Shown piece by piece: positions 13,161 through 32,808 of a stretch of DNA of 64,000 nucleotides. The first letter of the stretch is position 1; each line of letters opens with the position of its first letter. The notes beneath the pieces were generated by a model. The model was not told where the DNA came from and searched no databases. It saw nothing but the letters and a program-made list of their open reading frames with translations. The translations under genes were made by a program, and so were the position numbers. The DNA is from an uncultured archaeon (GTDB taxonomy: Archaea; Iainarchaeota; Iainarchaeia; Iainarchaeales; GCA-2688035): assembly GCA_964354805.1 (NCBI GenBank), contig CAYHBD010000008.1:29169-93168 (forward strand). Direction: 5' to 3'.

Positions 13161-13178
13161 CAATTGCCCATTTTCCCA

Positions 13179-13422: not shown

Positions 13423-13466
13423 AGTTTTTTAAACAAGTTAACTGTTTATATTTTGAGGTTTGCTGA

Positions 13467-14278: not shown

Positions 14279-14303
14279 TTGCATTACAAGCGGCTGATGG
14301 ATA

Positions 14304-14996
14304 ATGGCTGAAATGAAAAAAGATTGGGGGCAGCGGAAAAGCCCTGCAGCGGAAATAGGGGGAATGAAAAAAGCAGGGCAAGAGAGCAGCAAAAGCAAGT
14401 CTGATGAAATAGATGAATTAATGCGCTTCCTGCAGCCCGGCAGGGAGGTTGGCTTGGCGATTCTCAGGGCTTTGGAGGAATTTCCTGAAAAATACGTTGT
14501 TTTAATGGTCGCAAACAGAAAAAAGTATCCCGTGCTCGCGGAGCAGTTAATCAAATACTTTGTCGGAAAAAAAGCTGAAGGCATTTTCATTACAACAAAC
14601 AAGCCCGCAGTTGACCTTGTTGAAGGGCTGAGAAAAGAAAAAGTTGATTTGGGCAAGGTGAACTTAATTGACACAGTCAGCAAAAGAAGCGGAGAAGGGG
14701 AAGTTGACGCCCACAACATAATTTACATTGATTCTCCGGAAAACCTAACCGAACTGGATTCTGCAATCAACGACTGCATTGAAAAAGTGCAGGGCAAAAA
14801 CAGGTTTTTTGTCTTGGACAGCATGTCAACATTGCTTGTATACAACACCGAAAGGACAGTGGAAAAATTCATGCACAGCCTGAGCGGAAAAGCAAGGGCA
14901 AAGCAATTCAAAACAGTTTTCACGCTTGCAAGCGAAACAAGGCAGGAAACCCTGAACATCCTCTCGCAATTCTGCGACAAGGTAATAGAAATTTAA
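14304..14996 (+). CDS. Inactivated KaiC/RecA-like domain protein (DUF835-like)
   Basis: GIFITTNKP, LIDTVS, IDSPENLTEL, FVLDSMSTLLVYN; no Walker A; adjacent to KaiC. Confidence 0.65.
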   Translation: MAEMKKDWGQRKSPAAEIGGMKKAGQESSKSKSDEIDELMRFLQPGREVGLAILRALEEFPEKYVVLMVANRKKYPVLAEQLIKYFVGKKAEGIFITTNKPAVDLVEGLRKEKVDLGKVNLIDTVSKRSGEGEVDAHNIIYIDSPENLTELDSAINDCIEKVQGKNRFFVLDSMSTLLVYNTERTVEKFMHSLSGKARAKQFKTVFTLASETRQETLNILSQFCDKVIEI

Positions 14997-15051
14997 CAGC
15001 CGGCGCCAATGCCAACAACAGGCAACTTATTGAAATCCCGCAGCAAGTACC

Positions 15052-16341: not shown

Positions 16342-16547
16342 GGCAAATAAATTACTCAAAAAAAGGGAATTTAAAGGAATAGCAATCTTGCCGGAAAAAC
16401 AAAAAAGCGAAAGTGAAAAAAAGCCTCCTTGCAAAACCAAAGGTTTTGCGAGGCATCGTAAAGCTTCGCTTTACAATGTTGGAAAAAACCAGCGGAACCC
16501 CGCTCTATGGAAAGCTGTTTAAATAATGCAGGACAAATCTAATTAAC

Positions 16548-17216
16548 ATGGCAGAATTGTTTGACTTCAACGAAATGGTGACAAGGCACATTGAAAGGGA
16601 AAACAGGCCGAAGAGCATTGGAAAATATTATCCGAGCGAAATAGGCGGCTGCATGCGAAAGGTGTGGTACAGCTACAAGTATCCGCAGCAGGTGCAGCCT
16701 GAGCTGCTGAAAATTTTTGAAGTGGGCAACATGCTGCACGGCTTTGTTGTTGAAGTGCTGCAAAGCGAAAAAAACCCGGAAGTGCAGCTGTTGCAAAGCG
16801 AGTTCCCGCTGAAAATAACCCAGCCTGAATTCACCATAAGCGGCAGGGTTGATGACCTGCTGCTGGTAAAGGCAAGCGGAAAAACAATTGTGGTGGAAGT
16901 GAAGTCAACAAAAAGCATTGAATTCGTAAAGGAAGCAAACGAAAGCCACGTAATGCAGCTGCAGCTATACATGCACGCAACAGGAACACACAACGGCATA
17001 ATACTGTACATTGACAAGGGAAACCTGCAAAGCAAACAATTTGAAATAGATTACAGCCGGGAAGAGATTGAAAAAATACTGCAGCGCTTCGGGCAGCTGC
17101 ACCACCTGCTCAAATCAAGCCTGCTGCCGCTGGCTGAAGCAAAAAAAAGCGAAGACAAGCAATGGATGTGCAGATACTGCGAATACACTGAAAAATGCGA
17201 AAGGAACGAGGAATAA
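16548..17216 (+). CDS. cas4: Solo Cas4-like PD-(D/E)XK exonuclease with Fe-S cysteines
   Basis: YPSEIGGCMRK, SGRVDD, VEVKS, QLQLY, CRYCEYTEKC; no other cas genes in the window. Confidence 0.85.
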   Translation: MAELFDFNEMVTRHIERENRPKSIGKYYPSEIGGCMRKVWYSYKYPQQVQPELLKIFEVGNMLHGFVVEVLQSEKNPEVQLLQSEFPLKITQPEFTISGRVDDLLLVKASGKTIVVEVKSTKSIEFVKEANESHVMQLQLYMHATGTHNGIILYIDKGNLQSKQFEIDYSREEIEKILQRFGQLHHLLKSSLLPLAEAKKSEDKQWMCRYCEYTEKCERNEE

Positions 17217-17292
17217 AATCAGTTTTGTATAAGTCTTACTTTCTTATTTTCAGAAAAGTTTATAATATGTTTGAAGCAGTATTTATATTGAG

Positions 17293-17580
17293 GTGATTAT
17301 TTTGGCTGAAGTGGAATTAACAAAAATGAGTTCAAGGGGCCAGATAGTTATCCCCTTAGAGATACGGGAAGAGATGCACTTGAGAGAAGGGACTGCTTTT
17401 GCTGTTACTGGAAAGGGAGATACCTTGCTGCTAAAAATGGTAAAAACACCTTCAAAAGAAGAGATACTGGCGGGATGGGAAAGGATTACTGCAAAAGCAA
17501 GAGAGCAGGCGAAAAAACACGGGATAAAACAAAGCGATGTTGAGAAAATAATCCACGGGGCAAGGGGCATCAAAGGATGA
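17293..17580 (+). CDS. AbrB/MazE/SpoVT family antitoxin
   Basis: TKMSSRGQIVIPLEIREEMHL; overlaps the PIN gene (ATGA). Confidence 0.88.
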   Translation: MIILAEVELTKMSSRGQIVIPLEIREEMHLREGTAFAVTGKGDTLLLKMVKTPSKEEILAGWERITAKAREQAKKHGIKQSDVEKIIHGARGIKG

Positions 17581-17999
17581 TAAAAATCGTTCTCGACACC
17601 AATGTACTGATATCAGCAACGTTCTGGAGAGGCCCCTCCAATGAAATAACGTTATTGGCTTCAAAGCAAAAGATAAGCTGCTTTACCTCAATTGAAATAA
17701 TAGAAGAGTACGCGAGAATACTGAAAAGAGACTTCAAACAGGAAGACAATGAAATAGAAGAAAAAGTAAACGCAATTCTCTTGTTCTCACAAATCGTGAA
17801 GCCAATTATAAGAATAAATGCCGTCAAAGATGACCCCGCAGACAACAAGATATTGGAGGCAGCATTGGCTGCCAACGCAGACTACATTGTGAGCGGTGAC
17901 AGGCATTTAATCAAACTTGAAGAATTTAAAGAAACAAAAATACTGAAGGCAAAACAGTTCCTAGAACAACTGGGAAAAAGAGGGAGAAACGAAGCATAA
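17577..17999 (+). CDS. PIN domain toxin (VapC-like)
   Basis: IVLDTNVLISA, DPADNKILEAA, YIVSGDRHL. Confidence 0.92.
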   Translation: MIKIVLDTNVLISATFWRGPSNEITLLASKQKISCFTSIEIIEEYARILKRDFKQEDNEIEEKVNAILLFSQIVKPIIRINAVKDDPADNKILEAALAANADYIVSGDRHLIKLEEFKETKILKAKQFLEQLGKRGRNEA

Positions 18000-18150
18000 A
18001 GCCGGCCAACGCAGGAAAAAGAGTTTGTCCTAAGGAAAAAATCTTTGAAAAGACGAGTTGCGCAGTTTATTTGGCTTTGCCCTTGGCTGCCGGAAAGGAT
18101 TCCAAAAAAGGGTTTTGTATTTTATTAAGTTTGCTGGTTAGTTGATTGCT

Positions 18151-18750
18151 ATGGAGTTTGAATTCGGGCGCAACAAAATTGTTTTTGAAAAAGAGTTTTC
18201 AAGCCTTGACAAATTAGTGCTGCGTTTTGTAAAAATTCTTGACGCGCTTGAAGTGGATTATGTAATAATTTCCGGCTACATTGCGATTTTGTTCGGCAGG
18301 AGCAGGAACACGGAGGATGTTGACCTGTTCATTGAAGAAATGGCGTTTGAAAAATTTCTGCGCTTTTGGAATGAACTGGAAAAACAAGGGTTCGAATGCC
18401 TGAACACTTCAAGCGCAAAAGAGGCGTTTGAAGATTATTTGAACGAGAAGCTGGCGGTCAGGTTTGCTGAGAAGGGAATGGTTCAGCCAAACTTTGAGGT
18501 AAAATTCCCGAAAACAGATTTGAACCAATATTCCCTCAAAAACAAAATAATTGTCGAAATAGGCAAGGAAAAGCTCAACACCTCAAAAATGGAATTGCAG
18601 ATAGCATTCAAGCTGTATTTGGGCTCCGGCAAGGACATTGAGGATGCGATTCACTTGTGGGAAATGTTTAAAGGCAGGTTGAACATGGAATTATTCAATG
18701 GCTTTGTGAAACGGCTCGGAGTTGAAAGAAAGGTTAAATTACTGGAGTGA
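18151..18750 (+). CDS. Nucleotidyltransferase-fold protein (AbiEii/MNT-like)
   Basis: YVIISGYIAILFGRSRNTEDVDLF; K...KDIEDA C-terminal motif. Confidence 0.7.
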   Translation: MEFEFGRNKIVFEKEFSSLDKLVLRFVKILDALEVDYVIISGYIAILFGRSRNTEDVDLFIEEMAFEKFLRFWNELEKQGFECLNTSSAKEAFEDYLNEKLAVRFAEKGMVQPNFEVKFPKTDLNQYSLKNKIIVEIGKEKLNTSKMELQIAFKLYLGSGKDIEDAIHLWEMFKGRLNMELFNGFVKRLGVERKVKLLE

Positions 18751-18754
18751 AATT

Positions 18755-18910
18755 ATGGAAAAGCTTCCAAAAATCGATTTGAAAGAATTGAAAAAAGAAA
18801 TGGAGCTCAACAAGCAGCAGAGGCTCGAATTTGTAAGGCAATATGCTGAATGGCTGAAAAAAACCCCGAACAAAGTGTGGAGCAAACAGCAGGCAAAATA
18901 CTTAAAATAA
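18755..18910 (+). CDS. Small basic partner of the nucleotidyltransferase
   Basis: GGAGTGA RBS; about 51-aa helical ORF directly downstream. Confidence 0.6.
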   Translation: MEKLPKIDLKELKKEMELNKQQRLEFVRQYAEWLKKTPNKVWSKQQAKYLK

Positions 18911-18982
18911 AAGCAGTGCAACACCCCTAAGCCCTGTGAAAAACCAATATTCTTATATATCTTTTTGTTATATATTTGATAG

Positions 18983-19258
18983 GTGATGTTTTTGAGTGAA
19001 ACTTTGGTTAGGCTGGAGGGCGCGCCGGAAATTGTTTTGGAAAAACTGACCAGGCTTGGCTTGTTTAAAACAAAGACAGAGGCAATTAGGGCCGCTATTA
19101 TGGATTTGGGAAAGGACTACAAGGTGTTCAACAGCATGCGGGATTTGGAGGACGAGCTTGTTGTTCGCAAAGTTGCCAGGATTCATAAAGAGATTAAGAG
19201 CGGCAAGTGCAAGGTCTTCACCGAAGAAGAGGTTAAGAAAAAATACGGCTTTAAGTGA
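18983..19258 (+). CDS. Ribbon-helix-helix type antitoxin
   Basis: LEKLTRLGLFKTKTEAIRAAI; overlaps the downstream toxin. Confidence 0.7.
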   Translation: MMFLSETLVRLEGAPEIVLEKLTRLGLFKTKTEAIRAAIMDLGKDYKVFNSMRDLEDELVVRKVARIHKEIKSGKCKVFTEEEVKKKYGFK

Positions 19259-19527
19259 TTTCCTTGTTTCGCTTGGATTATGGCAAAGGCTGGGATAAAT
19301 TCTTCACCAAAATGGACAAGTCAGAGCAGGCAAGAATCTGGAAGAAAATCCAGCAACTTAAAACCATTGCAAAAGCAAGGCATTTAGGGAGAGGCTTGCC
19401 GTACTTTGTTGTGGAATCAGGCCAGCACAGAATCTGCTTCATCGAAGAAGGGCAAACCCGCACAATTGTTTTTGCTGGAAACCACAAGCAATACCAGAAA
19501 TGGTACACGGCTTTGGAAAACTTGTGA
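19255..19527 (+). CDS. RelE-superfamily toxin
   Basis: Size, position, KMDKSEQARIWKKI, RICF...IVFAGNHK. Confidence 0.65.
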   Translation: MISLFRLDYGKGWDKFFTKMDKSEQARIWKKIQQLKTIAKARHLGRGLPYFVVESGQHRICFIEEGQTRTIVFAGNHKQYQKWYTALENL

Positions 19528-19717
19528 TGCCCTGCAACTTCCTTTAATTCTTTATATGACCCATAATTATTGCCGATGCTGAACTGACAATGACGCAGAG
19601 CGCAAGCCGTGAAGAAACATGGGCGGACTGCGGCTATAAAGGACTTAAAATTAATAAAATATTAATATTTAGTCATTTATAGATGGATTTTTAAAGCTTT
19701 CAGGCTTTAATTTAAGT

Positions 19718-21052
19718 ATGGTTTCAAGATTAGATGTTTTTTTGATTGTTGGTCTTTATCCCGGGCTTTCTTGTGCTGATATTGTTAAAAAGATAGGCAA
19801 GGCCCAAACCTCTTACAATTCAGCATACAATCTTCTTCAGGAACTAAAAACCGAAGGGTTAGTTATTGAGGAGAAAGGGGGCTTTAGCGCTTCAAAAACA
19901 AAAAAGGTGCACATGCTTCTTAGCTTGGTTTACTTTTGCTTCAAAAACGGGATTGATTACAACAAAGTTATTTCAGAAAAAACCGCTGAGTTCGTTAAAA
20001 TGGGCTTGGAAAAAGGCCAAATCGATGGATTGCCGTTTGACGCAAAAACAGTCAGGAAAATTATTGTCCAGCTTTCGAAAAGCGGGTTTGCTATTGTTGA
20101 GTCAAGAAAGCCTTTTTCGTGCAAAATTGTGCCCTCGCAATTCACTCAATTGCTTGCAGAATACTTTTTTGGAGAAACTAGGGTTAAATGCCCTTTGCTA
20201 TTGGATTGCCTGAATGAAGAGTTTGTTAACAGCAGCCTTGAAAAGCAGTTTTCCTCATACAAAAGCCTTGAAAAAGAAAAATTCGCCTTTGATGAAATAG
20301 GGTTCATTTACATAAGCCTTTCCCTTGAAGGCAACACCCTTACATTGTCAGAAACTGAAAAGATAATCAAACAAAACATTGCCCCTGCGTCCAAATCCTT
20401 CAAAGATGTGCAACAGGTGCTGGATTATAAAAAAGCGCTTGACGGGTTTATTTTATCCAACAATGCAATCACACTCGAGTCAATACTTGAATTTCACAGG
20501 GTGGCAATGAATTCCTTAGTTGCGGGGGCAGGCAGCTTTAGAACGCAAAATGTCAGGATAAAAGGCAACCCCAACTTTAAAACAGCTGACTGGAAAGAGG
20601 TGCCTGAGCTATTAAGGGATTTTTTCAAAAACGCGAACATCCAAGAAACTTTTGGAAAAAGTTTCATCAAAAAGCCTTTTGCTGTTGCAAAAGCCTTGGG
20701 AAAAATAGCTTTGCAAAAAAAAGTGGCAATAAATAAACGTTATATGCCACAAGAAAAGAAAAAATTTTCTGCTGCTGAAATAGTTGAACGAGCCGCCTTT
20801 TTGCATAACGAATTCCAGCGCATCCACCCATTCATTGACGGAAACAGCAGGACATCAAGGGCAATATTCCTAAAAGCACTAACCCAAAACAATTTTCCTT
20901 TGATAAAAATACCTGTGGGCTTTTCCGACCAATACATGAAACTTACAAAACTAAGCGAAAAAAGAGACGACCAAAAATTTGCCCTCCTGATGAAACAGAT
21001 AGCCTTGGAAAACCTAAAACACCTAATAAAAAAACTCGAATACGAATTCTGA
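19718..21052 (+). CDS. Fic family protein with N-terminal winged-helix region
   Basis: SLSLEGNTLT, GSFRTQNV, IHPFIDGNSRTSR. Confidence 0.9.
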   Translation: MVSRLDVFLIVGLYPGLSCADIVKKIGKAQTSYNSAYNLLQELKTEGLVIEEKGGFSASKTKKVHMLLSLVYFCFKNGIDYNKVISEKTAEFVKMGLEKGQIDGLPFDAKTVRKIIVQLSKSGFAIVESRKPFSCKIVPSQFTQLLAEYFFGETRVKCPLLLDCLNEEFVNSSLEKQFSSYKSLEKEKFAFDEIGFIYISLSLEGNTLTLSETEKIIKQNIAPASKSFKDVQQVLDYKKALDGFILSNNAITLESILEFHRVAMNSLVAGAGSFRTQNVRIKGNPNFKTADWKEVPELLRDFFKNANIQETFGKSFIKKPFAVAKALGKIALQKKVAINKRYMPQEKKKFSAAEIVERAAFLHNEFQRIHPFIDGNSRTSRAIFLKALTQNNFPLIKIPVGFSDQYMKLTKLSEKRDDQKFALLMKQIALENLKHLIKKLEYEF

Positions 21053-21107
21053 AGACGGTCATAATAGAGGACTAATTGACCGATATGATAATATTTACGA
21101 GAAATAA
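21053..21107 (+). pseudogene. Decayed 3' fragment of a RelE-like toxin
   Basis: Reads KTVIIED/frameshift/DRYDNIYEK*, compared with KIIFKDFDHHDNIYG* of 21477-21743. Confidence 0.4.
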
Positions 21108-21234
21108 CCACAGCAAACAAAAACCGAACTGTAAGAAAAAACGAGAAAGCTGAAGGTGGAAAACAAGCGGTAATGCGAAAAGTATTTATATACATGGCAT
21201 ATATATTAGGTATATTAAAAGTGCAGGTGGTATC

Positions 21235-21474
21235 ATGGTGCAAGCTATGGTGGAAATTCCAAAAGAAGCCAACCAGATCTTGAATATTGTGAAAGCAAAG
21301 CATAATTTGAAGACAAAGAGTGATGCGATTTCTCTTGTCGTTATAGAGTATGGTTCAAGGCTACTTGAACCTAAACTAAGACCGGAATACTTGGAAAAGC
21401 TATCCAAACTAAACAAAGAAAAGGGAATCCATTTCAAGAACCTCGGTGGACTCAGAAAACTGATTGAGGCATAA
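21235..21474 (+). CDS. DUF2683-like antitoxin
   Basis: MVQAMVEI..EANQILNIVKAKHNLKTKSDAI...LRPEYLEKL. Confidence 0.8.
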   Translation: MVQAMVEIPKEANQILNIVKAKHNLKTKSDAISLVVIEYGSRLLEPKLRPEYLEKLSKLNKEKGIHFKNLGGLRKLIEA

Positions 21475-21476
21475 AG

Positions 21477-21743
21477 ATGCGCTCTTACGAAATACTTCCC
21501 TCGCTGATAAAGTCACTACGCAAATTGTCCAAAAGAAACAAAGCACTTTACGAACAAGTTATGAAAAAGATTGGCGAAGTGACCTGCACACCCGACGTGG
21601 AACACTACAAAAATTTGAGGTACGACATGAAAGATTCAAAACGCGTTCATATCGGGCACTTCGTACTCGTTTTCGAATACCGAAAAGCAGAAGACAAAAT
21701 TATTTTCAAGGACTTCGACCACCACGACAACATTTACGGATAA
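21477..21743 (+). CDS. RelE/StbE/YafQ-like toxin
   Basis: HYKNLRYDMK..KRVHIGHFVLVF...DFDHHDNIY. Confidence 0.85.
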   Translation: MRSYEILPSLIKSLRKLSKRNKALYEQVMKKIGEVTCTPDVEHYKNLRYDMKDSKRVHIGHFVLVFEYRKAEDKIIFKDFDHHDNIYG

Positions 21744-21745
21744 AA

Positions 21746-21830
21746 AAAGCCTTTTTGCTTCCACAAAAAAGCCTTGGGAAAAAAAAAGCAATTGCTTCAC
21801 AACAGCCTCTTTTGCTGTTGCAAAAGCCCT
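21746..21830. repeat. Two hairpin family A copies between convergent genes
   Basis: aaagcctttttgcttccacaaaaaagccttggg (21746-21778); gcctcTTTTGC-tgtt-GCAAAAgcc (about 21805-21828). Confidence 0.7.
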
Positions 21831-21851
21831 TTTTGCATTGCCAATTTTGGA

Positions 21852-24800
21852 TTATTTTTCTTCCAGCAACTTGTTTGTTTTGGCAAGCTTGGCTTCAATC
21901 TTGCCCTTTATCTCAAGGAACTGCTTCTGCTTCATAACACCTTTTTGGTGCATTTTTTCAAACTGCTTCAATGTGCTTCCGAGCTCCTTCTTTTCCGTTT
22001 CAAGCTCCTGCTTTGTTTTGATGAACTTTTCAAGCTCAAGGAGATTTTTATTGAGTTCCTTTTCAAATTCGCTGAAAATCTCTTCGGTTGCCAGCCCGTT
22101 TTCCTTCACTTTTTTCATTGCAGCAAGGCTTTCCAGCAGCTCTGCTTTCTCTTTCAGCGCCTGCTCCCTTGTCTTGGGGATGGTTCTCTTAAGCCCTTCA
22201 ATTTCCTTTTTCTGCTCCTCAATCTTTCTTTCAAGCGCGTCAACTTTGAGTTCAAGGGCGGTTTCCTTTTTTTCCACTATTGTTCCAAGGATTGTTTTAG
22301 GCATTGGCTGCGGCTTTTCAATTTGCCTTGACAAAATTGCGGTTTCTATTTTTTTCTTCCACTTGTCTGTCTTGGCAAGCTCCTTGAGTTCGAAAATGAA
22401 GGTTTCCTCTTCATCTTTGTCCATTGGCTTTACAGAAATGCTAAATGTGCTGTCTGCAATATCTATGTTTTTGATTTCAAACAGCCCTGCCTGCCTTTTA
22501 TTCTGCTGCGTGGCCTTCAACGAGGAAAGAATTTTTCGCAGCTCCCTTGCAAACACTATCATAACTAAAATTAAGGCAATAAATGCCGCGGCAATTATGC
22601 CAAAGGTAATAAAATCTGGTGAAACAGCCAGTGGTGCGGCAATTCCGGTTTCCTTCGGCATTTCATACACAATAGTCAATAATTCGAACAGCATCTTGCT
22701 CTCGTTCAGCCCGGCAAAGTTGATTTTGTCATTGTTGTAAATCGCAAGCACAAGGCTCTGAACACCCTTCCTGTACGATGCATTAACATTGAATGTAATC
22801 CTTTTCTGTTCGCCGGCCTTGATTAAAAAATCGTGCTTTTCTTTTTCTATCTGCCAGTCTAAAGGCACGATGAGAGAAACGCCTATGTTCATGTCCTGTT
22901 TGCCCCTGTTGAGCAGCAAAACATCAACAGAGCCTGCGCCTTCCATGAAAATCTTTGAAGTGCGGATATCCAACACGACAATTTCGCTTTGAAGCTCCCC
23001 TAATACCCTAAAGATTAATTTTGCTTCTTTGGAATCCTCTTTGCTTGAAATCCTTACCGTTACTATGTGATCCCCAAATTCGACGGTTGATGGCACACTT
23101 ACCTTTAAAACAAAGGATGACTCCTCGTTCGGGTTCAGCTCTGTTTTTTCCTGTTCCAAACCGTAAATGAACGGCCCGTCAAGCGAGAGCGCAAGGCCTG
23201 TAAGCTTGCCATTGCCTATGTTCTTTATCCTGATTTCAATGAATCCAATACTGCCTCTCATGATGGCCTTTTCGCTCGGCATCTCTATAATTGAAATTAT
23301 TCCCTTCCCGCCACCAGGCAGGACCGCGAATCCCCCTCCACCGCCACCTGCTGCTCCCCCGCCGCCGGGCGGCTGGGGTGTCTCTGGGCCCTCTTCTGTT
23401 GCAGTGAACTGCTTTGAGGCTGCGCTTGTTTCACTGCCATAATAAACTTTTACCTTGAACCAGTAGGTTTCCAGGTTATTTGCGTTAAGCGTCAAATCGG
23501 GATTCCAGCTCTGGTCTGCAAGAATTGATTTTGCGCCGGATGCGTAGTCAATATCATCTCCTCCGCCGCACTGGTTTGTCTGCTCTGAAACAATGCAGTA
23601 TTCGTACTGGTATTCCTGGCTGGTTGTTCCCTCGTTTGTTATTGTAACGTTCGCGGTGATTGTCGGAACAGTTGTGTCTGTGATTGCATTTATTTTGACT
23701 TCAGGCGGGTTTCCGGTTAGCTCCCACCAGTCGCTTGGCTTTACAGTTGAGCCATTGACGGTAACAGAAGCAATAGTTTCCCACATTCCCGCGGTCTGCC
23801 CGCTTGTTGAACTGAAACTGTATGTGTATATCCCTGTTTCCGAAAAATTCATGTCAACATTTTCCACAATTTTGTTCCTTGACGGGTCATAACTTGTTAT
23901 TTTCGGGGTTGAATCCGCATTCTTCGGGCTTCCGTTGAAATCAAACACCCACAACTTTGCATAATAGATTGCGCCTGGCTCGATTTTTTGAAAATCGCTC
24001 AGTATTGCAGTGAACTTTTGTATCTGGCTTGTGTGAATATTGTGCACTGTATCATTTACATCGTTTAGAATTGCCTGCATTGTTGAAAGTGCAGAAACAA
24101 TAGTTTGCTGGCTTGTGTTTATGTCTGTCACAACGCCCTTTATTGTGGTGATGTCTGTTTGAATGCTTGAAACTGTTGTGTTTATGTCGCTTGTTGCCCT
24201 GTTTATGTCTGTGACAGCGGTGTTGATATCTGTCACTATTATTTTTGTGCTCTGCACAATTGCATTTATGTCAACTATCCTTGAATTCACGTCTGAAATC
24301 ATCGACTGCGTGGCTGCAGCGCTTTGCTTCAAAGAATCTGTGTCAGAAAGAATTATTTGGGTTGCCTGGTTTAAGTCCAGAACGCGTGAACTAATTGCCG
24401 TAGAGGTGCTGTTTATGTCCAAAACAGTTGAAGAAACAGTGTTTACTGTGGAGTTTATGTCTGAAACGCCGGATTCAAGCGAATCAGTATAGCCTTGGAT
24501 GGTTATAAGCCTGTTGCACACATCATTTCCTCCAGGAGAAGTGCAGTTTAGCTCGTTTAAGATAAGTAAAAGGTTTTCGTCTATTGCAGTATGGGCTGTT
24601 TCAAGCGTGTCAACATAGCCGATTATTTGCAGCAAAGAAAGCGCGGTTTGGGAATTGAAATCGTTCAATGCTGCGTTTATGTCTGAAAGCCTTTGGCAAA
24701 CGCTTTCTGCGGGAAAACTTGAACAATCCAGCATGCTTTCTACATCGTTCAAGCCTGTTCTAACCAGTTGAATGTTCTCGTCAACAAGGATTATTTTCTC

Positions 24801-27800
24801 CTTTATAAAATTGCTCGTGGTGTTTATGTCTGTTACTGTCAGCAGGATGCTGTTTGACGTTGAATTTATTGTGCTGACTGTTGCGCTGATTGAATTTGCG
24901 GTTGAATTTATGTCATTGGTTGTTGCGCGGATTCCCATGACTGCGGAATTCAAATCCAGGAGCCTTAATGAAAGCGCGTCAAGCTTTCCACAGATACTGA
25001 GTGATGGCACAAAAGAGCAAGCGTTCAGGGTGTTGTTTATGTCAACCACTGTCGAATTTACGGTATTAATCCCTGAGTTGACATCAGATATGGATGAGCT
25101 AAGCTGGCTCAGCAGGCTGTTTGAACCCGCAACAGCATTGTTGATATCTATTGAATAACCGAGCACCTGCAAAAGTGTTGAATTGAGGTCTGTTATTGAA
25201 GCTGTGGTTATCAGGTTTGTTTTTATGAAATAAACATTTGCATCAATTCCCTGCAAGAGGGTGTTCATGTCAGTAAGGCTTGCTTGAACAGTGTCAATTT
25301 TTGAGTTGATTGCGTTAACAGTTGAATTGATGTCTCTTACAATTGAGTCAATAGAACTCGTAGTCGCATTAATGTCCTGCACGAGGAAGAATATCTGGTA
25401 AAGCGTGTAATTCTGGTCTGCTGTCAAGCCACCGCTTACGGTTCCACCAGAAGCTGTTGCCGAAGACTGGTTGACATCAAAGGATGCTGCGCACTGGAAC
25501 CGGTTTGTTCCAATGTTCTGGTCTATAATGAGATTGTAGCCTCCGCCTGTTGAAGGCGCGATGAAGAAATTGTAATACCAGCCGGATTCGAACTCATTCA
25601 GGGTGTAGGATGACAGCAGGCTGAAAGCCGGATTGTAAAGCTTTACCTGCGGCGACAATCCGCTTAGCGGCGCTGCCGAAGGCCCGAGCATTAGTGCCGC
25701 GATTGAGACATTTGAATCAAGCATCCAGGAACCCGGAACAAACAATCTGCAGCTTGACTGGTTTGTGGAATAGCTTCTCAAAGCGGCAAGATCATCAAGC
25801 AAAAGCTCGTATGTCTCGTTCGTGTTGAGGTAAACCGCCCTGAAATCAGGAACCTTATGCAAAGTTTCAGTCTGGGCATAATATCCGTTTATGTCCAAAA
25901 TCCTCTGCCGGGCATTCGCGCATATTGTCTGCGCCGCTGGGGTGAGCAGGACACTGCAGTAGTTTTCCACTTCCGCCGAATAATAATTCGCATAATTGTA
26001 ATCATGTTCTATGTCGGTGAAATATTTGTTTCCCGAAATAATTGTTGCGGTTTTGGTTTCGTTCTGCAAAAAATCCTGACTAAGATAGATTACTGGGTTG
26101 CCATAGGCATCAAATGAGAGGCGGTAACTTTCATTGTTCAGGTCCGCAACCACAAAGATCTGCACAAGCGGAGTTTCCCCAATGGTTACGGACCGTATCT
26201 GGTCCGGGTCAACCGCCTCAGATAGCTGGTAATAAAGGATGTAATCTGAAATCGCATTTGGAACAAGGTTTTGCAATGTCGCGATTTGCGTGACAGCCTG
26301 CCTGTTTGCATCTGAAAACTGGAAATTATTTGTTATCAGCACGTCTGCGAGCACGGCACTTACCGCGAACGAGCTTGTTGTATACCCTGTGTTGGATGAT
26401 GTTGCCGCGGTTATTGTGGCAACATATATTCCATTGGCAGCATTCAAATCCAAAATTGTGGAATACGTGTATGTTCCGCTGCCGGCATTTGTCATTGAAA
26501 CATTGCTGACAAGCGTGTTTCCTGTCGGGGAAACTATTGAAATAGTGAGGTCTGCATCCGTGATTGCCAAGCCTGTTATGACATCGGATACAGCCGCTGA
26601 AAACACAATCAAATCCCCTGCCTTGTAGGCAGTCTGGTTCAATGTAACAATTATTGAAATAGGGGAAACCTTGAATGAAACCGTGCCATTTATGTCGTCG
26701 TTGTTGTAGTTTGCCTTGAAGAAGTATAACCCTGCTTCAGCAGTGTTTGGAACAGTGTATGAATATGAAAAATCGCCGTTTCCATCGGTTGTTGTCTGGT
26801 AGGTCAGAAGCGGAACCGTGGGCTCGCTGTTTTTGAAAAGCTGCACTATTATCGGCGCGTTTGCAAGCCGCGCGCTGTTCTTCATCATGAAACCATTAAG
26901 GTCAATTGTTTCAAGGCGCAGGTATTCCCTTGAGTCCCTTGAAAGAATCATGAATGCAGTGTTCTTCCAGTCCCTGAGCAAAAACTGGGTCTGGTAACGC
27001 GCATTCGTCAGGTCTGGAAAAACCACGCGGAAAAGCGTGTTGTAATCATCAGGGTTGTTGCTTGTGTACAACATATCAACGGTTATTTCAGTTGCTGAAA
27101 GCATTGGATTAACGACTTGTTCAGTCACAAAATCATAAGTCGGATTGGCTACCACTGTTGTGTCAAACCAGCGGTTATATATGTAATCCCTAATAACTGA
27201 ATATTCCCTGTCAGACTGGTAATATGGCGACCATGGCCTGGTTACGCCCAAAACACCAGGGCTGTAAGTGTAAATCAGGGTGGTTGTTGTTGCAGGAACA
27301 AGGCAAAAACTTTTCGATTCGGCTCTTGAAAAATCGCAGTGCCATGGCTGTGAATTCGGATGCTTTACTCCCTCATTTAGTTCGGTAAATGAGTCAACAA
27401 CCTGGGTGTAATCGCTATAGTGGCTGTAATCCCAGAGCGAATTATGCCTTGAATAAAGCGCAGCATCAATCCCAAGGTCGGTAATAGCTGTTGTTTTGTT
27501 TGGCCTGCCATCCATCACATGCTCGGCCCAGCTTGCTGTAATCGCGGCAGTCGGGTAAAGGGATGCCCTTGCAGGCCTGAAAGACGCGTATTTTTCGATA
27601 TTGTCAAGCGTGCTTGGGCAGAATACGCCCTCTGTTGCCGGGGCAAAGTTGTTTATCCAGCCAGGGCCCAAATCAAAGTCGCCGTACTGGTTTGCTGCAA
27701 AGTTCCAGTTGCACGGGCTTTGATAATAAGTCATGTTTTGGTCTGCCTTGCTCCAAAAGCCTGATTCATCATATGCTTTTTTGTTGAATGCAAAGCTTGG

Positions 27801-30800
27801 AGCCCATGCATAGCGGGTCTGCCCGGCAAGCTGCTCTGCGCCTGTTGTGGTGTATGCGTGAATCACAAAAGGAAAAGAGCTTGAAGTGAAAAACCATTTT
27901 CCCCAAAAGTATGTTGATTTTTGGGTAAACGTATAATCCAAAGAGCCATTGACTGACAATGAGCCGGAGGCAGCGTAGAGGTTGGAGGGATAGACAGGGT
28001 CAGGCCTTGCGTTTTCACCGACAATCACATTTACATCCCGCTGGAAAAGGAAAAAGGTTCCAAGCGAGCCAACGTTGGTAGTGAATTTTATCACAGAAGT
28101 GGCGCAAGAGATATTGTTTCTGTTGGAAGTCACCAAGTGCGTTGAAGAGCTTGAAATAAGATTGCTTAAATCGCTTAGGAAATCGTCAAAACCCTTGTAG
28201 CCATATTCTTCGGAAGGGCAGACATCCAAAATGTAAGAACTGAGTTTTGCTGATGTTCCGTACTGTGCGTTCAGGGCAAGAGGCGGAAGCCACCTGTTTT
28301 CCCTGTTGTCCGGAATGAAAAGGTTTGGCTTCAAATAAAACTTTGCAATCAGGTTCGGGTCAACATACTTGTTCAAGCCGGTTCCGTAAATGCTTTCCTT
28401 CGGGAACGCGTTCACGTAACCATTGTTCCCAACCGAGGGAATTGATGTGTTCAGGTCGGAATCGCAGGAAATGAAATCAGTTGTGTACGCGCTTGTAAAG
28501 GTTGTTGCGCCGGTTGCATCTGTAGGGCCAACCGGCCGCCATGAAAAATACGGCCAGACCTTGTGCACTGTGCAGCCTTTGCCTGGCTTTGCGTTTGAGG
28601 AACTCACGTTAACAAAATGCTCTCCGTTGTAATCAATAGTGAACATCAATGGCAATGGGGTCGGTGTCAATACCGCGGTTTTTTTGTCAGCAGAAATTGT
28701 TGCGGGAACATATGCGTCCATTAGTTCTTTCCTGCCGCTCCAGTTGAACCAGTCGTTGTTGTATGTTCCCTGCGGAACCAAAGAATAGGTTCCCCAAAAA
28801 TAATATGGGTGATAATTTTGGCTTATTCCAGTAGTCATTACAACAAGCGGAGCGTCAAGCTTTGTTTTTACCCTCACTCTCCCATTGTTGTTGAAAAAAT
28901 ACCAGGTGGACATTATTTTTCTCGTCTGGGCAGAGCCCAGATGCGGTGTCGCAGTAATGTTGGCTGTGTTCATGTCCATTCTTGCGAAAATTTTTTGGTT
29001 GGCGCTTCTCTGATAGCATCTTGAGGCAAAGACATTCACTGCTGTTCCACAAGTGCTTCCGCTTGCACAAAGCCCTTCAGCGGTTGTTCCAGCGCCTGTC
29101 CCTGTAGTCTGGGCATTCATGTAACCCAAATTCAGGGTGTAGTGAGTTGTTGAAGCAAACCAGCTTTGATCGTTGCCGTCAAGCTTGAACCTCACTGTTT
29201 CTGTTGCACCGCCTTCTCCAATATTAGCCCAGCTGAACCAGCTCTGGCTGTTTACATCAATAGAGTCTGTTCCGGCAGCGCAACTGCCTGAAACATTATA
29301 AACAGCCAAGTCTGAATAGCCTGGAGCAATCATGCTGACTGCCGGCGCGTTATAATAAAGTCTGTACTGCTTTGTTTGGTCTTTTGCAAAATTGTCCTGT
29401 ATGAAAAGAGCATAGTTTGTGTCCACAAAGCAGGTGTTTGTGTTTGCGTCAACCTGCCACAGGCCGGCAGGGCTGCTTGAGGCAGGCAAGCCAATTATGT
29501 TGTTTGATTCATCTGTTACAATCAAGTCAGTGCAATCAGGCCTTATGCCCCCGGTCAAATTAACGTCAAACCAGAACACTTCCGCGTTCCTGTCAAACAA
29601 GCCAGGCTCTGTTGCATTAAAGTCAACCCTGTTGGAATAGGCGTTTCCGTCAATTGTATCTCCCGCCACATTTTCTGACACGCTTATAATCATCGGGTTT
29701 GCGATTGCGTTTGTGTCCTGCTCAACATACTGCCAGTGCCTGTTTCCGTCAACCCCGGAGCCCTTTGGCTTGAACAAAAAATATGACTCGTGCCACTGCC
29801 GTAATGCCGGATTAACATTGTTGAAGTCAAGGGTTGCATCAACATGGTCGTAAATGTAAGAGGTCGCGGCAGCAGTGTTGCTGAAAAAAGTTGTCCGTCC
29901 CCAGTGGTTGCTCCATACTTCGTTTTGGTCTGCGCCAAATCGCGTGGCAAAGCCAAGCACCTGGTTGTAACCGCTGTTGTGGTCTGAAAGCCATGCCCAG
30001 TTGTCTGTTCCGAATGTTTTTGTTATCGGAAAATTGTCCCATTTTTTTGGCGTTACCAGTGCATAAGTGGTTGTTCCTGACAGATACACTCCATTTTGAG
30101 TATGCCCTAAAGTAGCATGGTTTAAGTCAAGGTTTTCATAAAGGCAATACCTGTTTAGAATATGCCAGCCGAATAAGTTATTCGTGTAAAGAGTTGAAGG
30201 GCAGTGACCTGGTGCTAGGCTGCCGTCAATTGTGTCAATGGCCCCGTACATAAACCTCAAATAATTGTATGGCGTTGGGTTTGGCTGGGCTGTTACTGTT
30301 GTGACGTAGGCAGTCATTATTCTCGGGTCCATGAATTGCGAGCTTGCGGTTTCTGTTGCCGTGAACTCGCTGAAGGCATTTATTGTGCTGAATCTAAGAT
30401 AGCTGGTGTTAAATCGGTTGTCATCGGTGTTAATGACCATTCCATTTCTGTCAACCGCCTTGAAATTAAAACTTGCATATTCATTGCTGTAAAAAACGTT
30501 TTTTGTCGGGTTCATTACAAAAGAATAAAGGTTTGTGTTGCCCCTAACCCAAAGGTTAGCGTCAGGAAAAGATTGAACGTCTACATCGTTTTTTGAAATC
30601 TTCTGGATTCTGCCGTTTGAATAAACGGGGTAAATGAATCCATTGACATCATTATCAATCCAGAGAGTTTGCGGGCTTCCATGCGTCGCTCCAGTTCCAT
30701 AAGCAGCAGTGCTTGCAGGAGCCCAGGAGCGCCAGTTAACCCAGCCGATTGTTCCATCGGATTTTCTTATCTGGATTATTGGTGCGCCCGCAATTCCTGT

Positions 30801-31970
30801 ACCTGTGCCAAGAACCGGCGCCTGCACTACTGCATAACAGTTTTCCGAATCGCACCGAATATTGTTATACTGACCATAAACATACAGGCTGTTGATTCTC
30901 TGGCTTCTCCACAACAATGCTCCTGTGTTCCTGTCAAGCGCGTAAACTGAGCCGCCGAAAAAAAGCCCGAGAGCAGTATTGTTCAAGCCTTTTGCAACAT
31001 ACACTGCATTCGCATCGCAATCCAAGCCCAAAACAGCCAGAACAGGGCCATTTACGTCATCAGGGTCTGAATTCCAATACTGCCCGCCCTTAATAAAATC
31101 GTAGGCTGAAACATTGCCGTCCGCAAAGCCAACGAAAACCCTGTTGTTGTCCGGGCTGATGCAAATGTCGTTTGCAATTGAAGCCTTTAGGGTTGGGGCA
31201 AAGTTTCCATCCCACAGAGGAGTTCCCTGAAGGTTTTTGTATTTTCTTGGAGCAGTGCTTGCGGCATAGGTAATGAATGCATTGCCATCAGAGGATATTT
31301 TTATTGAATAAGCAAGCACTGCAGCAGTAGTAAAAGCCGTTGTTCCTGAACAATCGGCCATTAAAGTCCTTTGCAAATTATTGGCAGCAGCGCCAAAAAC
31401 AGAATAAACATAGGTTCCGTCACTGGCAATGTCATTGGCACCGGCAGTAGTAATAGTAATATTGCAGTCCCTGTTTCCATTAACCATGCTGAATTTTTCA
31501 ACCCCGCCATTTGGAGCAGTGTACGCAGAGGCAACAAAACAGGAAGTCCCATCGCAGGTTATTCCGTTTTTTGAAACGGGGTATTGCCCGCCGCCGGTCC
31601 AATACAATGCAGATTTTATTTTTGTTCCAACCTTGAATTGCTGTTTGCCTGGTGATAGCCTGAAATCGTACGGAACATTCCAGTCATAGGAAAAATTTCC
31701 AGACCCATCTGTCGGAATGTCTACTATCGGAAAGCCCCATTGCTCGTTGTAGCCGTCCCACCAGGCACTGGCGGACTCGAGATAATTTGCCAGCACAATA
31801 TTTGAGTCGGGAGTGAAGCCTATTCCGGTTATTGTTACAGTGTCAGAGATGAATGTTTCGTTCGAGTCAACAGAAAGGGTTGCAGCAAAGGAAAAACTTA
31901 AAAAAAAAGACAGCAAAAGGAAAAGCAGACTGGTTTTTAAAAATAGCCTATAACGTTGCCTGTAACTCAT
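21852..31970 (-). CDS. Giant (~3370 aa) membrane-anchored cell-surface protein
   Basis: Sec signal peptide, PQQ-like propeller motifs (YALDRNTGALLW), Ig-like segments, DINxT coiled-coil stalk, Pro/Gly linker, CARDB-like domains, one TM helix, cytoplasmic coiled coil; alternative TTG start at 31985. Confidence 0.85.
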   Translation of the reverse strand: MSYRQRYRLFLKTSLLFLLLSFFLSFSFAATLSVDSNETFISDTVTITGIGFTPDSNIVLANYLESASAWWDGYNEQWGFPIVDIPTDGSGNFSYDWNVPYDFRLSPGKQQFKVGTKIKSALYWTGGGQYPVSKNGITCDGTSCFVASAYTAPNGGVEKFSMVNGNRDCNITITTAGANDIASDGTYVYSVFGAAANNLQRTLMADCSGTTAFTTAAVLAYSIKISSDGNAFITYAASTAPRKYKNLQGTPLWDGNFAPTLKASIANDICISPDNNRVFVGFADGNVSAYDFIKGGQYWNSDPDDVNGPVLAVLGLDCDANAVYVAKGLNNTALGLFFGGSVYALDRNTGALLWRSQRINSLYVYGQYNNIRCDSENCYAVVQAPVLGTGTGIAGAPIIQIRKSDGTIGWVNWRSWAPASTAAYGTGATHGSPQTLWIDNDVNGFIYPVYSNGRIQKISKNDVDVQSFPDANLWVRGNTNLYSFVMNPTKNVFYSNEYASFNFKAVDRNGMVINTDDNRFNTSYLRFSTINAFSEFTATETASSQFMDPRIMTAYVTTVTAQPNPTPYNYLRFMYGAIDTIDGSLAPGHCPSTLYTNNLFGWHILNRYCLYENLDLNHATLGHTQNGVYLSGTTTYALVTPKKWDNFPITKTFGTDNWAWLSDHNSGYNQVLGFATRFGADQNEVWSNHWGRTTFFSNTAAATSYIYDHVDATLDFNNVNPALRQWHESYFLFKPKGSGVDGNRHWQYVEQDTNAIANPMIISVSENVAGDTIDGNAYSNRVDFNATEPGLFDRNAEVFWFDVNLTGGIRPDCTDLIVTDESNNIIGLPASSSPAGLWQVDANTNTCFVDTNYALFIQDNFAKDQTKQYRLYYNAPAVSMIAPGYSDLAVYNVSGSCAAGTDSIDVNSQSWFSWANIGEGGATETVRFKLDGNDQSWFASTTHYTLNLGYMNAQTTGTGAGTTAEGLCASGSTCGTAVNVFASRCYQRSANQKIFARMDMNTANITATPHLGSAQTRKIMSTWYFFNNNGRVRVKTKLDAPLVVMTTGISQNYHPYYFWGTYSLVPQGTYNNDWFNWSGRKELMDAYVPATISADKKTAVLTPTPLPLMFTIDYNGEHFVNVSSSNAKPGKGCTVHKVWPYFSWRPVGPTDATGATTFTSAYTTDFISCDSDLNTSIPSVGNNGYVNAFPKESIYGTGLNKYVDPNLIAKFYLKPNLFIPDNRENRWLPPLALNAQYGTSAKLSSYILDVCPSEEYGYKGFDDFLSDLSNLISSSSTHLVTSNRNNISCATSVIKFTTNVGSLGTFFLFQRDVNVIVGENARPDPVYPSNLYAASGSLSVNGSLDYTFTQKSTYFWGKWFFTSSSFPFVIHAYTTTGAEQLAGQTRYAWAPSFAFNKKAYDESGFWSKADQNMTYYQSPCNWNFAANQYGDFDLGPGWINNFAPATEGVFCPSTLDNIEKYASFRPARASLYPTAAITASWAEHVMDGRPNKTTAITDLGIDAALYSRHNSLWDYSHYSDYTQVVDSFTELNEGVKHPNSQPWHCDFSRAESKSFCLVPATTTTLIYTYSPGVLGVTRPWSPYYQSDREYSVIRDYIYNRWFDTTVVANPTYDFVTEQVVNPMLSATEITVDMLYTSNNPDDYNTLFRVVFPDLTNARYQTQFLLRDWKNTAFMILSRDSREYLRLETIDLNGFMMKNSARLANAPIIVQLFKNSEPTVPLLTYQTTTDGNGDFSYSYTVPNTAEAGLYFFKANYNNDDINGTVSFKVSPISIIVTLNQTAYKAGDLIVFSAAVSDVITGLAITDADLTISIVSPTGNTLVSNVSMTNAGSGTYTYSTILDLNAANGIYVATITAATSSNTGYTTSSFAVSAVLADVLITNNFQFSDANRQAVTQIATLQNLVPNAISDYILYYQLSEAVDPDQIRSVTIGETPLVQIFVVADLNNESYRLSFDAYGNPVIYLSQDFLQNETKTATIISGNKYFTDIEHDYNYANYYSAEVENYCSVLLTPAAQTICANARQRILDINGYYAQTETLHKVPDFRAVYLNTNETYELLLDDLAALRSYSTNQSSCRLFVPGSWMLDSNVSIAALMLGPSAAPLSGLSPQVKLYNPAFSLLSSYTLNEFESGWYYNFFIAPSTGGGYNLIIDQNIGTNRFQCAASFDVNQSSATASGGTVSGGLTADQNYTLYQIFFLVQDINATTSSIDSIVRDINSTVNAINSKIDTVQASLTDMNTLLQGIDANVYFIKTNLITTASITDLNSTLLQVLGYSIDINNAVAGSNSLLSQLSSSISDVNSGINTVNSTVVDINNTLNACSFVPSLSICGKLDALSLRLLDLNSAVMGIRATTNDINSTANSISATVSTINSTSNSILLTVTDINTTSNFIKEKIILVDENIQLVRTGLNDVESMLDCSSFPAESVCQRLSDINAALNDFNSQTALSLLQIIGYVDTLETAHTAIDENLLLILNELNCTSPGGNDVCNRLITIQGYTDSLESGVSDINSTVNTVSSTVLDINSTSTAISSRVLDLNQATQIILSDTDSLKQSAAATQSMISDVNSRIVDINAIVQSTKIIVTDINTAVTDINRATSDINTTVSSIQTDITTIKGVVTDINTSQQTIVSALSTMQAILNDVNDTVHNIHTSQIQKFTAILSDFQKIEPGAIYYAKLWVFDFNGSPKNADSTPKITSYDPSRNKIVENVDMNFSETGIYTYSFSSTSGQTAGMWETIASVTVNGSTVKPSDWWELTGNPPEVKINAITDTTVPTITANVTITNEGTTSQEYQYEYCIVSEQTNQCGGGDDIDYASGAKSILADQSWNPDLTLNANNLETYWFKVKVYYGSETSAASKQFTATEEGPETPQPPGGGGAAGGGGGGFAVLPGGGKGIISIIEMPSEKAIMRGSIGFIEIRIKNIGNGKLTGLALSLDGPFIYGLEQEKTELNPNEESSFVLKVSVPSTVEFGDHIVTVRISSKEDSKEAKLIFRVLGELQSEIVVLDIRTSKIFMEGAGSVDVLLLNRGKQDMNIGVSLIVPLDWQIEKEKHDFLIKAGEQKRITFNVNASYRKGVQSLVLAIYNNDKINFAGLNESKMLFELLTIVYEMPKETGIAAPLAVSPDFITFGIIAAAFIALILVMIVFARELRKILSSLKATQQNKRQAGLFEIKNIDIADSTFSISVKPMDKDEEETFIFELKELAKTDKWKKKIETAILSRQIEKPQPMPKTILGTIVEKKETALELKVDALERKIEEQKKEIEGLKRTIPKTREQALKEKAELLESLAAMKKVKENGLATEEIFSEFEKELNKNLLELEKFIKTKQELETEKKELGSTLKQFEKMHQKGVMKQKQFLEIKGKIEAKLAKTNKLLEEK

Positions 31971-32040
31971 TTCCCTTGCCCCCAATTACAACAAAATAAT
32001 AAATAGTATATATACTGTTCTTTGAGTATAAAAATATTCT

Positions 32041-32072
32041 GTGGATATAAAAAAAGCGTGGATATAAAAAAA
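32041..32072 (-). promoter_or_regulatory. Tandem 15-bp duplication with a TATA-like core upstream of the giant gene
   Basis: gtggatataaaaaaa twice (minus strand tttttttatatccac). Confidence 0.4.
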
Positions 32073-32259
32073 ACTGTTGAATATCTCCCGTAATGTTTAT
32101 TTGGTTGGGAACATTTGCTCATTTGGGGGGCGAGCATACATGCTCCCGTCCCTTCCCTGATTGCTTGCTATGCTCTCATTTGCCCTTGCTCTTTTTCCCT
32201 CTGCTTTTTGCTCGACCTTCACCTTATTTGCCCTTGCTCTTCTTCCCCTTTCCTCTCGC

Positions 32260-32425
32260 TACAGCCAGGAAGAAGTGGAAAAAATACTGCAGTGCTTTGG
32301 GCAACTGCACAGCCTGCTCAAAGCAGGCCTGCTGCCGCTGGCTGAAGCAAAAAAAAAGCGAAAACAAGCAATGGATGTGCAGATACTGCGAATACACGGA
32401 AAAATGTGGGAGAAACGAAGCGTAA
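32260..32425 (+). pseudogene. Diverged 3' fragment (54 codons) of the cas4-like gene
   Basis: YSQEEVEKILQCFGQLHSLLKAGLLPLAEAKK/+1 A/SENKQWMCRYCEYTEKCGRNEA*. Confidence 0.92.
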
Positions 32426-32438
32426 GAAAAAACAGCTT

Positions 32439-32681
32439 CTACTCTTTCTCAAAAACCTTTTTGCCGGCAAAAACCACAATAAACAAAACAATTATTGCGG
32501 CAAAAAGCAAATACATTGCAATGGGAAAAGCAGAACACCCTTCACTGCCACAAGAACCAACTGGAGCTGCAACGGCAAGAGCAGCAACAGGGGAACCGGG
32601 AGCAGCAAATTGCAAACCAAACAAAACAATCAAAACAACGCAAACTGCAAGCATTGAGTAAAAAAACTTTTTTGGGTCCAT
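32439..32681 (-). CDS. Small two-TM membrane protein
   Basis: Two hydrophobic helices separated by a loop with a Cys pair. Confidence 0.6.
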   Translation of the reverse strand: MDPKKFFYSMLAVCVVLIVLFGLQFAAPGSPVAALAVAAPVGSCGSEGCSAFPIAMYLLFAAIIVLFIVVFAGKKVFEKE

Positions 32682-32808
32682 TTCAACCAATAAAAGAAAT
32701 AAGAGGACAATTTTTTATTCCTTTCTTTTCCCGTCTGGAATTGCAAAGCCCTGCCAGCAGCAGCTATTTTTTTCATGACCTTTGCTTACCATGCCGAAAT
32801 TGCCTGCT

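Follow-up and report, generated by a model that had tools for sequence, protein, structure and literature searches.

How can genes accumulate directly behind a conserved gene, leaving that gene intact, when the added DNA holds no recombinase? The question is raised by the cas4-like gene of an uncultured archaeon and by the block of some 15 kb behind it, both lying within a stretch of 64,000 nucleotides (nt) (contig CAYHBD010000008.1 of assembly GCA_964354805.1, forward-strand positions 29,169 to 93,168; hereafter the window, in whose own numbering coordinates are given). The source is a ‘Ca. Iainarchaeum’-type (Diapherotrites) metagenome-assembled genome (MAG) of the DPANN archaea, 1.38 Mb in 49 contigs, 88.5% complete and with a mean guanine-plus-cytosine (GC) content of 44.0%. 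DPANN archaea have tiny genomes, most of their lineages are uncultured and few mobile elements have been recognised in them, and how they gain and shuffle accessory genes is poorly understood. The locus offers a concrete, recurring footprint, in which the tail of a conserved gene is copied and displaced with each new cargo and no recombinase lies in the cargo; this footprint can be searched for in thousands of MAGs, both to measure gene flux and to seek the responsible enzyme.

The repeated cas4 tail

The intact, solo cas4-like gene (16548-17216, forward strand, 222 amino acids (aa)) encodes a PD-(D/E)XK nuclease. A preliminary description of the window had noticed that its 3' end recurs 15.2 kb downstream with a frameshift, and the two copies are indeed direct repeats on the forward strand, 15,208 nt apart: the proximal copy (17052-17216) is the working cas4 3' end, comprising the last 54 codons and the stop, and the distal copy (32260-32425) is a dead 3' end, frameshifted by an extra A. 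Once that A is removed (A9 from 32349 in the distal copy vs A8 at 17141-17148 in the proximal one), the copies agree at 145 of 165 positions, with perfect blocks of 15, 35 and 34 nt, and the distal copy retains all cysteines of the C-terminal triad. Alignment with the flanks places a sharp onset of similarity at TACAGCC and its end at the stop codon. A BLAST search of the interval against the whole 1.38-Mb assembly returned no further copies of the repeat, and the genome holds no second full-length cas4, which disposes of an unrelated full-length paralog as source of the distal copy, a derivation that the preliminary description had allowed for.

The distal copy ends 13 nt, stop to stop, from a small membrane open reading frame (ORF) downstream of ppdK (32439-32690, reverse strand), as two convergent genes normally would. 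In a close relative (L176), whose ppdK product is 96% identical in amino acids over its last ~300 residues, ppdK is likewise followed by a similar ORF, of 87 aa. By this comparison, the distal copy abuts the native flank of the locus.

An insertion hotspot between cas4 and ppdK

Gene order around cas4 is conserved family-wide: two KaiC-like genes, a gene for a 462-aa coiled-coil protein, cas4 and then the convergent ppdK, which lies at 32809-35499 on the reverse strand of the window. Among 21 cas4-ppdK loci of the family, this genome included, the gap between the two genes measures 0, 43, 56, 95 and 108 nt in five relatives, 459-2707 nt in fourteen loci with unrelated cargo, ~12 kb in one and 15.6 kb here. 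Cargo varies by lineage and includes a DUF2683-RelE pair, a ribbon-helix-helix (RHH)-PIN pair, a polyprenyl synthase, a pilin-like protein, secreted proteins and homologs of an uncharacterised ~290-aa protein encoded at 41741-42616 of the window, and the ~12-kb locus carries mostly unknown genes. The cas4-ppdK junction is thus a flexible-genome hotspot in this DPANN family. The comparison of relatives that the preliminary description had proposed therefore turned up both empty sites and different cargo, and not identical content throughout; together with the low GC content of part of the block and a giant surface protein whose N-terminus is without family homolog, it upholds the view of the interval as accessory DNA at an insertion hotspot behind cas4. 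For that protein, no match to the N-terminal 2000 aa was found at E <= 1e-10 in 22 other family genomes, and the toxin-antitoxin part of the block has a GC content of 39.2%, the 0.8th percentile of the genome's 4.6-kb windows.

DUF2683-RelE pairs homologous to the one at 21235-21743 adjoin cas4 in two relatives (L019 and L021). The L021 pair (489-1016) occupies the space between the coiled-coil gene and cas4, upstream of the latter, and the 5' side of the gene can therefore receive cargo too. A common mobile cassette across lineages was considered and rejected, since the HAD and PIN cargo genes are unrelated between lineages.

The preliminary description had reported no integrase, transposase, cas1/cas2 or array between the copies, and this stands: no Pfam or NCBIfam match to any of these genes, or to an integrase remnant, was obtained for the main ORFs in 17217-32259, and no tandem-repeat array was found. 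Spacers between the genes of the block are at most ~275 nt, too short to hide a recombinase gene.

A third remnant and a composite block

The last 28 nt of the PIN gene (17972-17999, forward strand) are a third cas4-tail remnant, with 24 of 28 positions identical to 32398-32425. It encodes the same ending as the distal tail, stop included, and supplies the last 9 codons and stop of the PIN gene. The remnant is the only match at <=6 mismatches in the whole genome on both strands, and 10 random genome-size sequences contained no match at <=4 mismatches.

A metagenome contig (L095), whose cas4 is 93% identical in nucleotides to that of the window, shows what this remnant marks. The two share sequence beginning right after the 28-nt remnant and then a nucleotidyltransferase block at 78% nucleotide identity (L095 1678-2514 vs window 18113-18940), whereas before this block L095 has a HAD-family gene where the window has AbrB-PIN. 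Their common ancestor therefore had a cas4 tail directly before the nucleotidyltransferase block, and the two lineages later received different cargo at the same point, in two independent insertions. The idea of a single 15-kb island has to be abandoned: AbrB-PIN is a later, separate insertion with a 28-nt remnant of its own, L095 carries different first cargo, and the block arose by at least two insertions.

Recurrence in other DPANN lineages

A Cas4 C-terminus profile was searched against six-frame translations of ~170 fetched loci and against whole genomes, and cas4-tail remnants of 37-150 nt, extra to an intact cas4 and downstream of it, were found in at least six other DPANN lineages. One of these belongs to the same family (L028/G002), where a remnant of 37 nt at 95% identity flanks the RHH-PIN pair. 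Others have a remnant of ~50 nt lying 57 nt after the cas4 stop (G165), of 75 nt on a contig other than that of cas4 (G015), of 55 nt at 91% beyond cargo of a 69-aa gene and a HAD hydrolase (L117/L119), and of 60 nt at 87%, with a 69-aa gene, a HAD hydrolase and a second PD-(D/E)XK gene as cargo (L121). A strongly diverged remnant of ~150 nt (L065/L142/L145) is followed by a type IIG restriction-modification enzyme and DndB. Every remnant, those of this genome included, extends to the stop codon, and lengths range from 28 to 165 nt. Their frequency is modest, at 4/27 cas4-bearing genomes of the order, and they are rare among the ~57 cas4-bearing genomes in a 401-genome sample of another DPANN class.

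Ancestry of the tails

Any two of the three tails (proximal copy, distal copy and that of L095) differ by 12-16%, whereas the 5' parts of cas4 differ by 5.6%. With three roughly equidistant tails, relatives could not be used to polarise native vs imported copy, and the proposal of the preliminary description that the insert restores the 3' end of its target gene stays plausible rather than proven; its further proposal of stabilisation by toxin-antitoxin modules stays hypothetical. Between the window and L095, cas4 shows no mismatches over 17005-17082 and dense mismatches thereafter; its last 51 nt are 23.5% diverged vs ~6% upstream (maximum chi-square p 0.001), which fits imported tails, although much of the excess divergence of the tail reflects weaker constraint. 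The nearest relative also shifts between the 5' and 3' parts of cas4, which is suggestive only.

How the tails may have multiplied

The mechanism that we favour, holding it at a little under an even chance, is a homology-anchored displacement of the 3' end without dedicated integrase. Accessory DNA arrived immediately behind cas4 at least twice. On each occasion the incoming DNA would have brought a working cas4 tail along with new cargo, and the tail that it replaced would have moved downstream and become a dead remnant: the 165-nt copy at 32260-32425, beside the native flank, would date from the older event, and the 28-nt copy at 17972-17999 from the younger, which brought AbrB-PIN. The incoming DNA, with cas4 sequence followed by different cargo, would have come from related cells and entered by host homologous recombination within cas4, its far end being joined by an illegitimate event inside the resident cas4 tail or right behind it (homology-facilitated illegitimate recombination); alternatively, a circular fragment could have entered by a single crossover. 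The toxin-antitoxin, Fic and surface-protein genes would be cargo, and Cas4 the landing pad and not the machine; nothing in our results supports a role of the Cas4 protein in the insertions. Homology-anchored addition would explain why recombinases are lacking, why cargo is unrelated and breakpoints vary, why some inserts are tiny and why sister lineages were hit independently. The corresponding signature, an intact gene with a trail of 3' fragments of variable breakpoints, is present here (165 and 28 nt) and in six other lineages.

Several points weigh against such displacement. No donor locus was found, and recombination and DNA uptake are, to our knowledge, uncharacterised in DPANN archaea. 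Synonymous divergence in the 3' part of cas4 (0.35-0.39) does not clearly exceed that in the 5' part (0.255), which leaves a foreign origin of either 165-nt copy unproven. The process also looks specific to cas4 and not general: remnants of the ppdK tail are missing from all 45 loci searched, and the genome's 60 longest direct repeats, of which only one was inspected in detail, include no similar duplicate of a gene tail. (A candidate on contig C9, two surface-protein ORFs with a near-identical 3' end, was set aside as probably a common C-terminal domain of paralogs.) All eight remnants fall in the last 165 nt of a 669-nt gene, and five of the eight are 28-60 nt long, a typical length for attachment (att) sites that random illegitimate joins do not predict.

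Site-specific integration would account for much of this, and we regard it as unlikely but worth real weight. The cas4 tail would be the chromosomal site (attB) of tyrosine-integrase elements carrying a replacement tail, whose repeated use built the nested array; either the integrase modules were lost later or the cargo consists of integrase-less satellites mobilised in trans, in the manner of cis-mobilisable elements (CIMEs). In its favour are direct repeats of att length that, in several lineages, always mark the extreme 3' end of a single conserved gene, the asymmetry between cas4 and ppdK, and the perfect 34-35-nt blocks within the 165-nt repeat. Moreover, the genome has two tyrosine recombinases, both on other contigs: XerA and a 435-aa enzyme whose patchy, multicopy distribution in the family is what one would expect of integrases of mobile elements. 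As with an integrase-borne element, repeats of the target 3' end flank the insert and relatives have empty sites. Against it, no recombinase lies inside the block (17217-32259), between or beside the repeats in any of the eight cases, or in ~20 cargo sets; the repeats range in length from 28 to 165 nt and the shortest cargo measures 57 nt; and this genome has no cas4-tail sequence outside the locus that could serve as the element's own site (attP). Nor does the block recur as a unit, being mosaic, with a different first module in L095 and no viral relatives.

The search for a source of recombinase activity went beyond the block. Neither a serine recombinase nor TnpB was found in the genome, itself 88.5% complete. 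With an integrase profile built from family sequences, a few other DPANN loci proved to have a recombinase 2-8 kb downstream of cas4; these enzymes were rejected as source, since their loci are without att-like repeats and the one in L048 is a true XerA (12610-13587, on a Woesearchaeota contig, 2 kb from cas4). An integron or a cluster of attC sites without integrase (CALIN) was likewise rejected, with no intI beside cas4 and no attC-type hairpins; intergenic folds are not more stable than shuffles, save two weak cases (z about -2) without attC form. A conserved Xer/dif site at the junction, as used by integrative mobile elements exploiting Xer (IMEX), is unlikely, as empty sites leave 0-108 nt between the genes and in one case none. 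A casposon or CRISPR link was rejected for want of Cas1 in the genome, and a viral origin because Cas4, Fic and the nucleotidyltransferase have no relatives in IMG/VR.

Separately, in ~10 Aenigmarchaeota-type loci a ~310-aa Xer-like tyrosine recombinase gene lies directly downstream of cas4 on the same strand (L066 10697-11620, L078 10649-11608, L058 3654-4589 and seven more), scoring 118-127 bits with the XerA model, under its cut-off. These position-conserved genes are probably host genes, and cas4 and xer may form a conserved pair in Aenigmarchaeota-type contigs.

In-situ duplication seems to us rather improbable. In this reading each insertion was illegitimate, template switching or staggered breaks during its repair duplicated a stretch of the resident tail, and the initially identical copies then diverged. 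Foreign cas4 sequence is not required, and a synonymous divergence of 0.39 between the 165-nt copies is compatible with a duplication dating from about the time when L095, with which part of the block is shared, split off. Yet AbrB-PIN postdates that split, and the 28-nt remnant at the end of the PIN gene departs at 9/28 positions from the present end of cas4; this exceeds the ~6% of the rest of the gene and is therefore too much for a recent in-place duplication, and it fits an imported tail. Neutral drift of one copy throughout would be expected to give a higher ratio of nonsynonymous to synonymous divergence than the 0.22 measured for the 165-nt copies; although not significant with 20 differences, this and the retained cysteines hint that both copies evolved as working genes. 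The L065 remnant, too, shares only 38 nt with its own cas4, at 84%.

Still more doubtful is that the DPANN solo-cas4 tail is a dedicated landing site at which a host-encoded activity, such as XerA-like recombinases or the Cas4 nuclease processing incoming ends, inserts integrase-less cassettes with genes for defence, toxin-antitoxin or surface functions; if true, it would be a previously unrecognised cassette-capture system in small-genome archaea.

An assembly artefact, with co-existing strains joined at the cas4 tail into a chimeric contig, is very improbable: the MAG has 49 contigs and the G015 remnant, on another contig than cas4, hints at strain variants, but 88%-identical copies do not cause assembler joins, the independent contig L095 confirms cas4 followed by the same nucleotidyltransferase block, and three independent assemblies of another lineage (L065, L142, L145) have the same architecture.

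Relation to known systems

Homology-anchored displacement has its closest parallel in effector-immunity loci of Rhs and type VI secretion systems (T6SS), where displacement of C-termini was proposed to proceed via homology-facilitated illegitimate recombination (Kirchberger 2017, PMC5361080, citing Jackson 2009, de Vries & Wackernagel 2002 and Prudhomme 2002). The two kinds of locus share an intact gene with one or more displaced 3' fragments behind it, the arrival of new modules next to that gene so that older ones move downstream, the lack of an integrase, and mosaic arrays that vary among close strains. They differ in the anchor gene, which here encodes a housekeeping-like nuclease and there a polymorphic toxin; in the cargo, which here does not confer cognate immunity; and in the short remnants (28-165 nt) and the DPANN host of the cas4 locus.

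Phage 21 and e14 insert in icd of Escherichia coli and carry a replacement 3' end. The anatomy is similar here, with a partial duplicate of the last ~50 codons flanking the insert, the gene intact and the displaced tail at the far end beside the native flank. However, those elements are discrete recurring units with their own integrase beside att, whereas the cas4 locus has no integrase, composite content and varying repeat lengths. Streptococcal integrative and conjugative elements and CIMEs accrete at the 3' end of a gene as well, the CIMEs being integrase-less, att-flanked islands that are mobilised in trans; the repeat-flanked insert without recombinase and the tandem or nested accretion at one site are shared, but none of the genomes searched yielded a cognate element that has an integrase and uses the cas4 tail, and this genome holds no second cas4 tail outside the locus. 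Partial 3'-end duplication of a target gene around an island is textbook knowledge and integrase-less islands are common; new, in the literature searched, are the nested trail of tails and its recurrence at one conserved gene across DPANN lineages.

The Cas4 protein and its conserved neighbourhood

The gene at the centre of the hotspot encodes a member of the Cas4 family, with a PD-(D/E)XK fold that matches Cas4 profiles: PDDEXK_1 (45.6 bits) and Cas_Cas4 (30.2 bits, cut-off 22.7) both pass in Pfam, and the TIGR00372 cas4 model scores 57.6, under its cut-off of 65. The Cas4 C-terminal Fe-S cysteine triad (C46, C49, C55) is invariant in 30 orthologs. In the family, cas4 is a single-copy core gene, present in 21/22 genomes, and orthologs of 46-60% identity occur on Aenigmarchaeota, Pacearchaeota, Woesearchaeota and Undinarchaeota contigs. 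Cas1 was not found in the 88.5% complete genome, and the protein is therefore of the ‘solo-Cas4’ type; no CRISPR array was found between positions 14 and 36 kb of the window, and the linked cas1/cas2 or array that characterises a CRISPR-associated Cas4 is missing.

Solo-Cas4 has already been reported as typical of DPANN, most of which encode it without CRISPR-Cas, and in several DPANN genomes its gene adjoins restriction-modification genes, an adjacency that was taken as a functional link to defence (Hudaiberdiev 2017, PMC5704561). Where that work saw a defence link, the adjacency may reflect cargo piling up at a hotspot; the L065 locus, with its type IIG restriction-modification enzyme and DndB just after a cas4 remnant, gives an example of defence genes as possible passengers. 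A simpler reading would thus be that the defence genes beside DPANN solo-Cas4 are hotspot passengers rather than Cas4 partners. The second PD-(D/E)XK/Cas4-like gene of L121 (5286-5972, 228 aa), which lies between cas4 and the 60-nt remnant and is distinct from cas4, agrees with a published remark that some DPANN encode two solo-Cas4 proteins.

Upstream, two KaiC/RadA-like ATPase genes, the gene for the 462-aa coiled-coil protein and cas4 form a family-conserved block at 13467-17216; the coiled-coil protein weakly matches an archaea-specific SMC-related protein. This composition suggests a DNA-repair or maintenance module and not a defence role for this Cas4.

Cargo of the block and other features

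The preliminary description had listed AbrB-PIN, a nucleotidyltransferase with a partner, RHH-RelE, Fic, DUF2683-RelE and a giant surface gene, and the profile scans uphold this list in part. All genes but the last lie on the forward strand. The AbrB/MazE-type antitoxin (17293-17580; TIGR01439 37.1 bits, over its cut-off; Pfam MazE_antitoxin E 2.6e-5), the VapC-like PIN toxin (17577-17999; PIN_3 79.6 bits, TIGR00305 64.5 bits) and the Fic-domain protein (19718-21052; Fic 58.8 bits) are solid. The DUF2683 antitoxin-like gene and RelE/YafQ toxin gene (21235-21743) are partly supported, both falling under their Pfam cut-offs (DUF2683 23.8 bits vs 27; RelE/YafQ E 2.5e-16). Under family cut-offs, too, are the putative nucleotidyltransferase (18142-18750; DUF2204, a weak E of 0.007) and two overlapping small ORFs (18983-19527), the supposed RHH-RelE, which are possibly a RelB-like/RelE-like pair (RelB-like E 0.057 and RelE/ParE E 0.003, both far under cut-offs; Gp49 E 0.048). 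The giant gene (21852-31985, reverse strand) encodes a 3377-aa surface protein with an MG2 domain (58.7 bits) and is lineage-specific cargo.

A dispersed family of hairpin repeats (~40-130 nt), resembling a miniature inverted-repeat transposable element (MITE) or a repetitive extragenic palindromic (REP) element, is represented at 20636-20764 and 21739-21828 of the window and by >30 copies on other contigs. The first of these copies interrupts the Fic domain in frame, adding ~35-45 residues, so that 136 residues align to 90 profile positions; others lie between RelE and the giant gene. Just upstream of the start of the giant gene, 32023-32084 holds ~3.4 tandem copies of a 17-nt A/T-rich unit (TGGATATAAAAAAA-like), whose sequence probably contains reiterated TATA-box and transcription factor B recognition element (BRE) promoter motifs.

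Beyond the hotspot, ppdK is interrupted at residue 459 by ~1.2 kb in three relatives (L016 13588-14834, L021 4411-5651 and L023 13974-15157). Some database ppdK homologs of ~1300 aa contain LAGLIDADG and intein-splicing domains, and the interruption is probably an intein; the ppdK of the window is without this insert.

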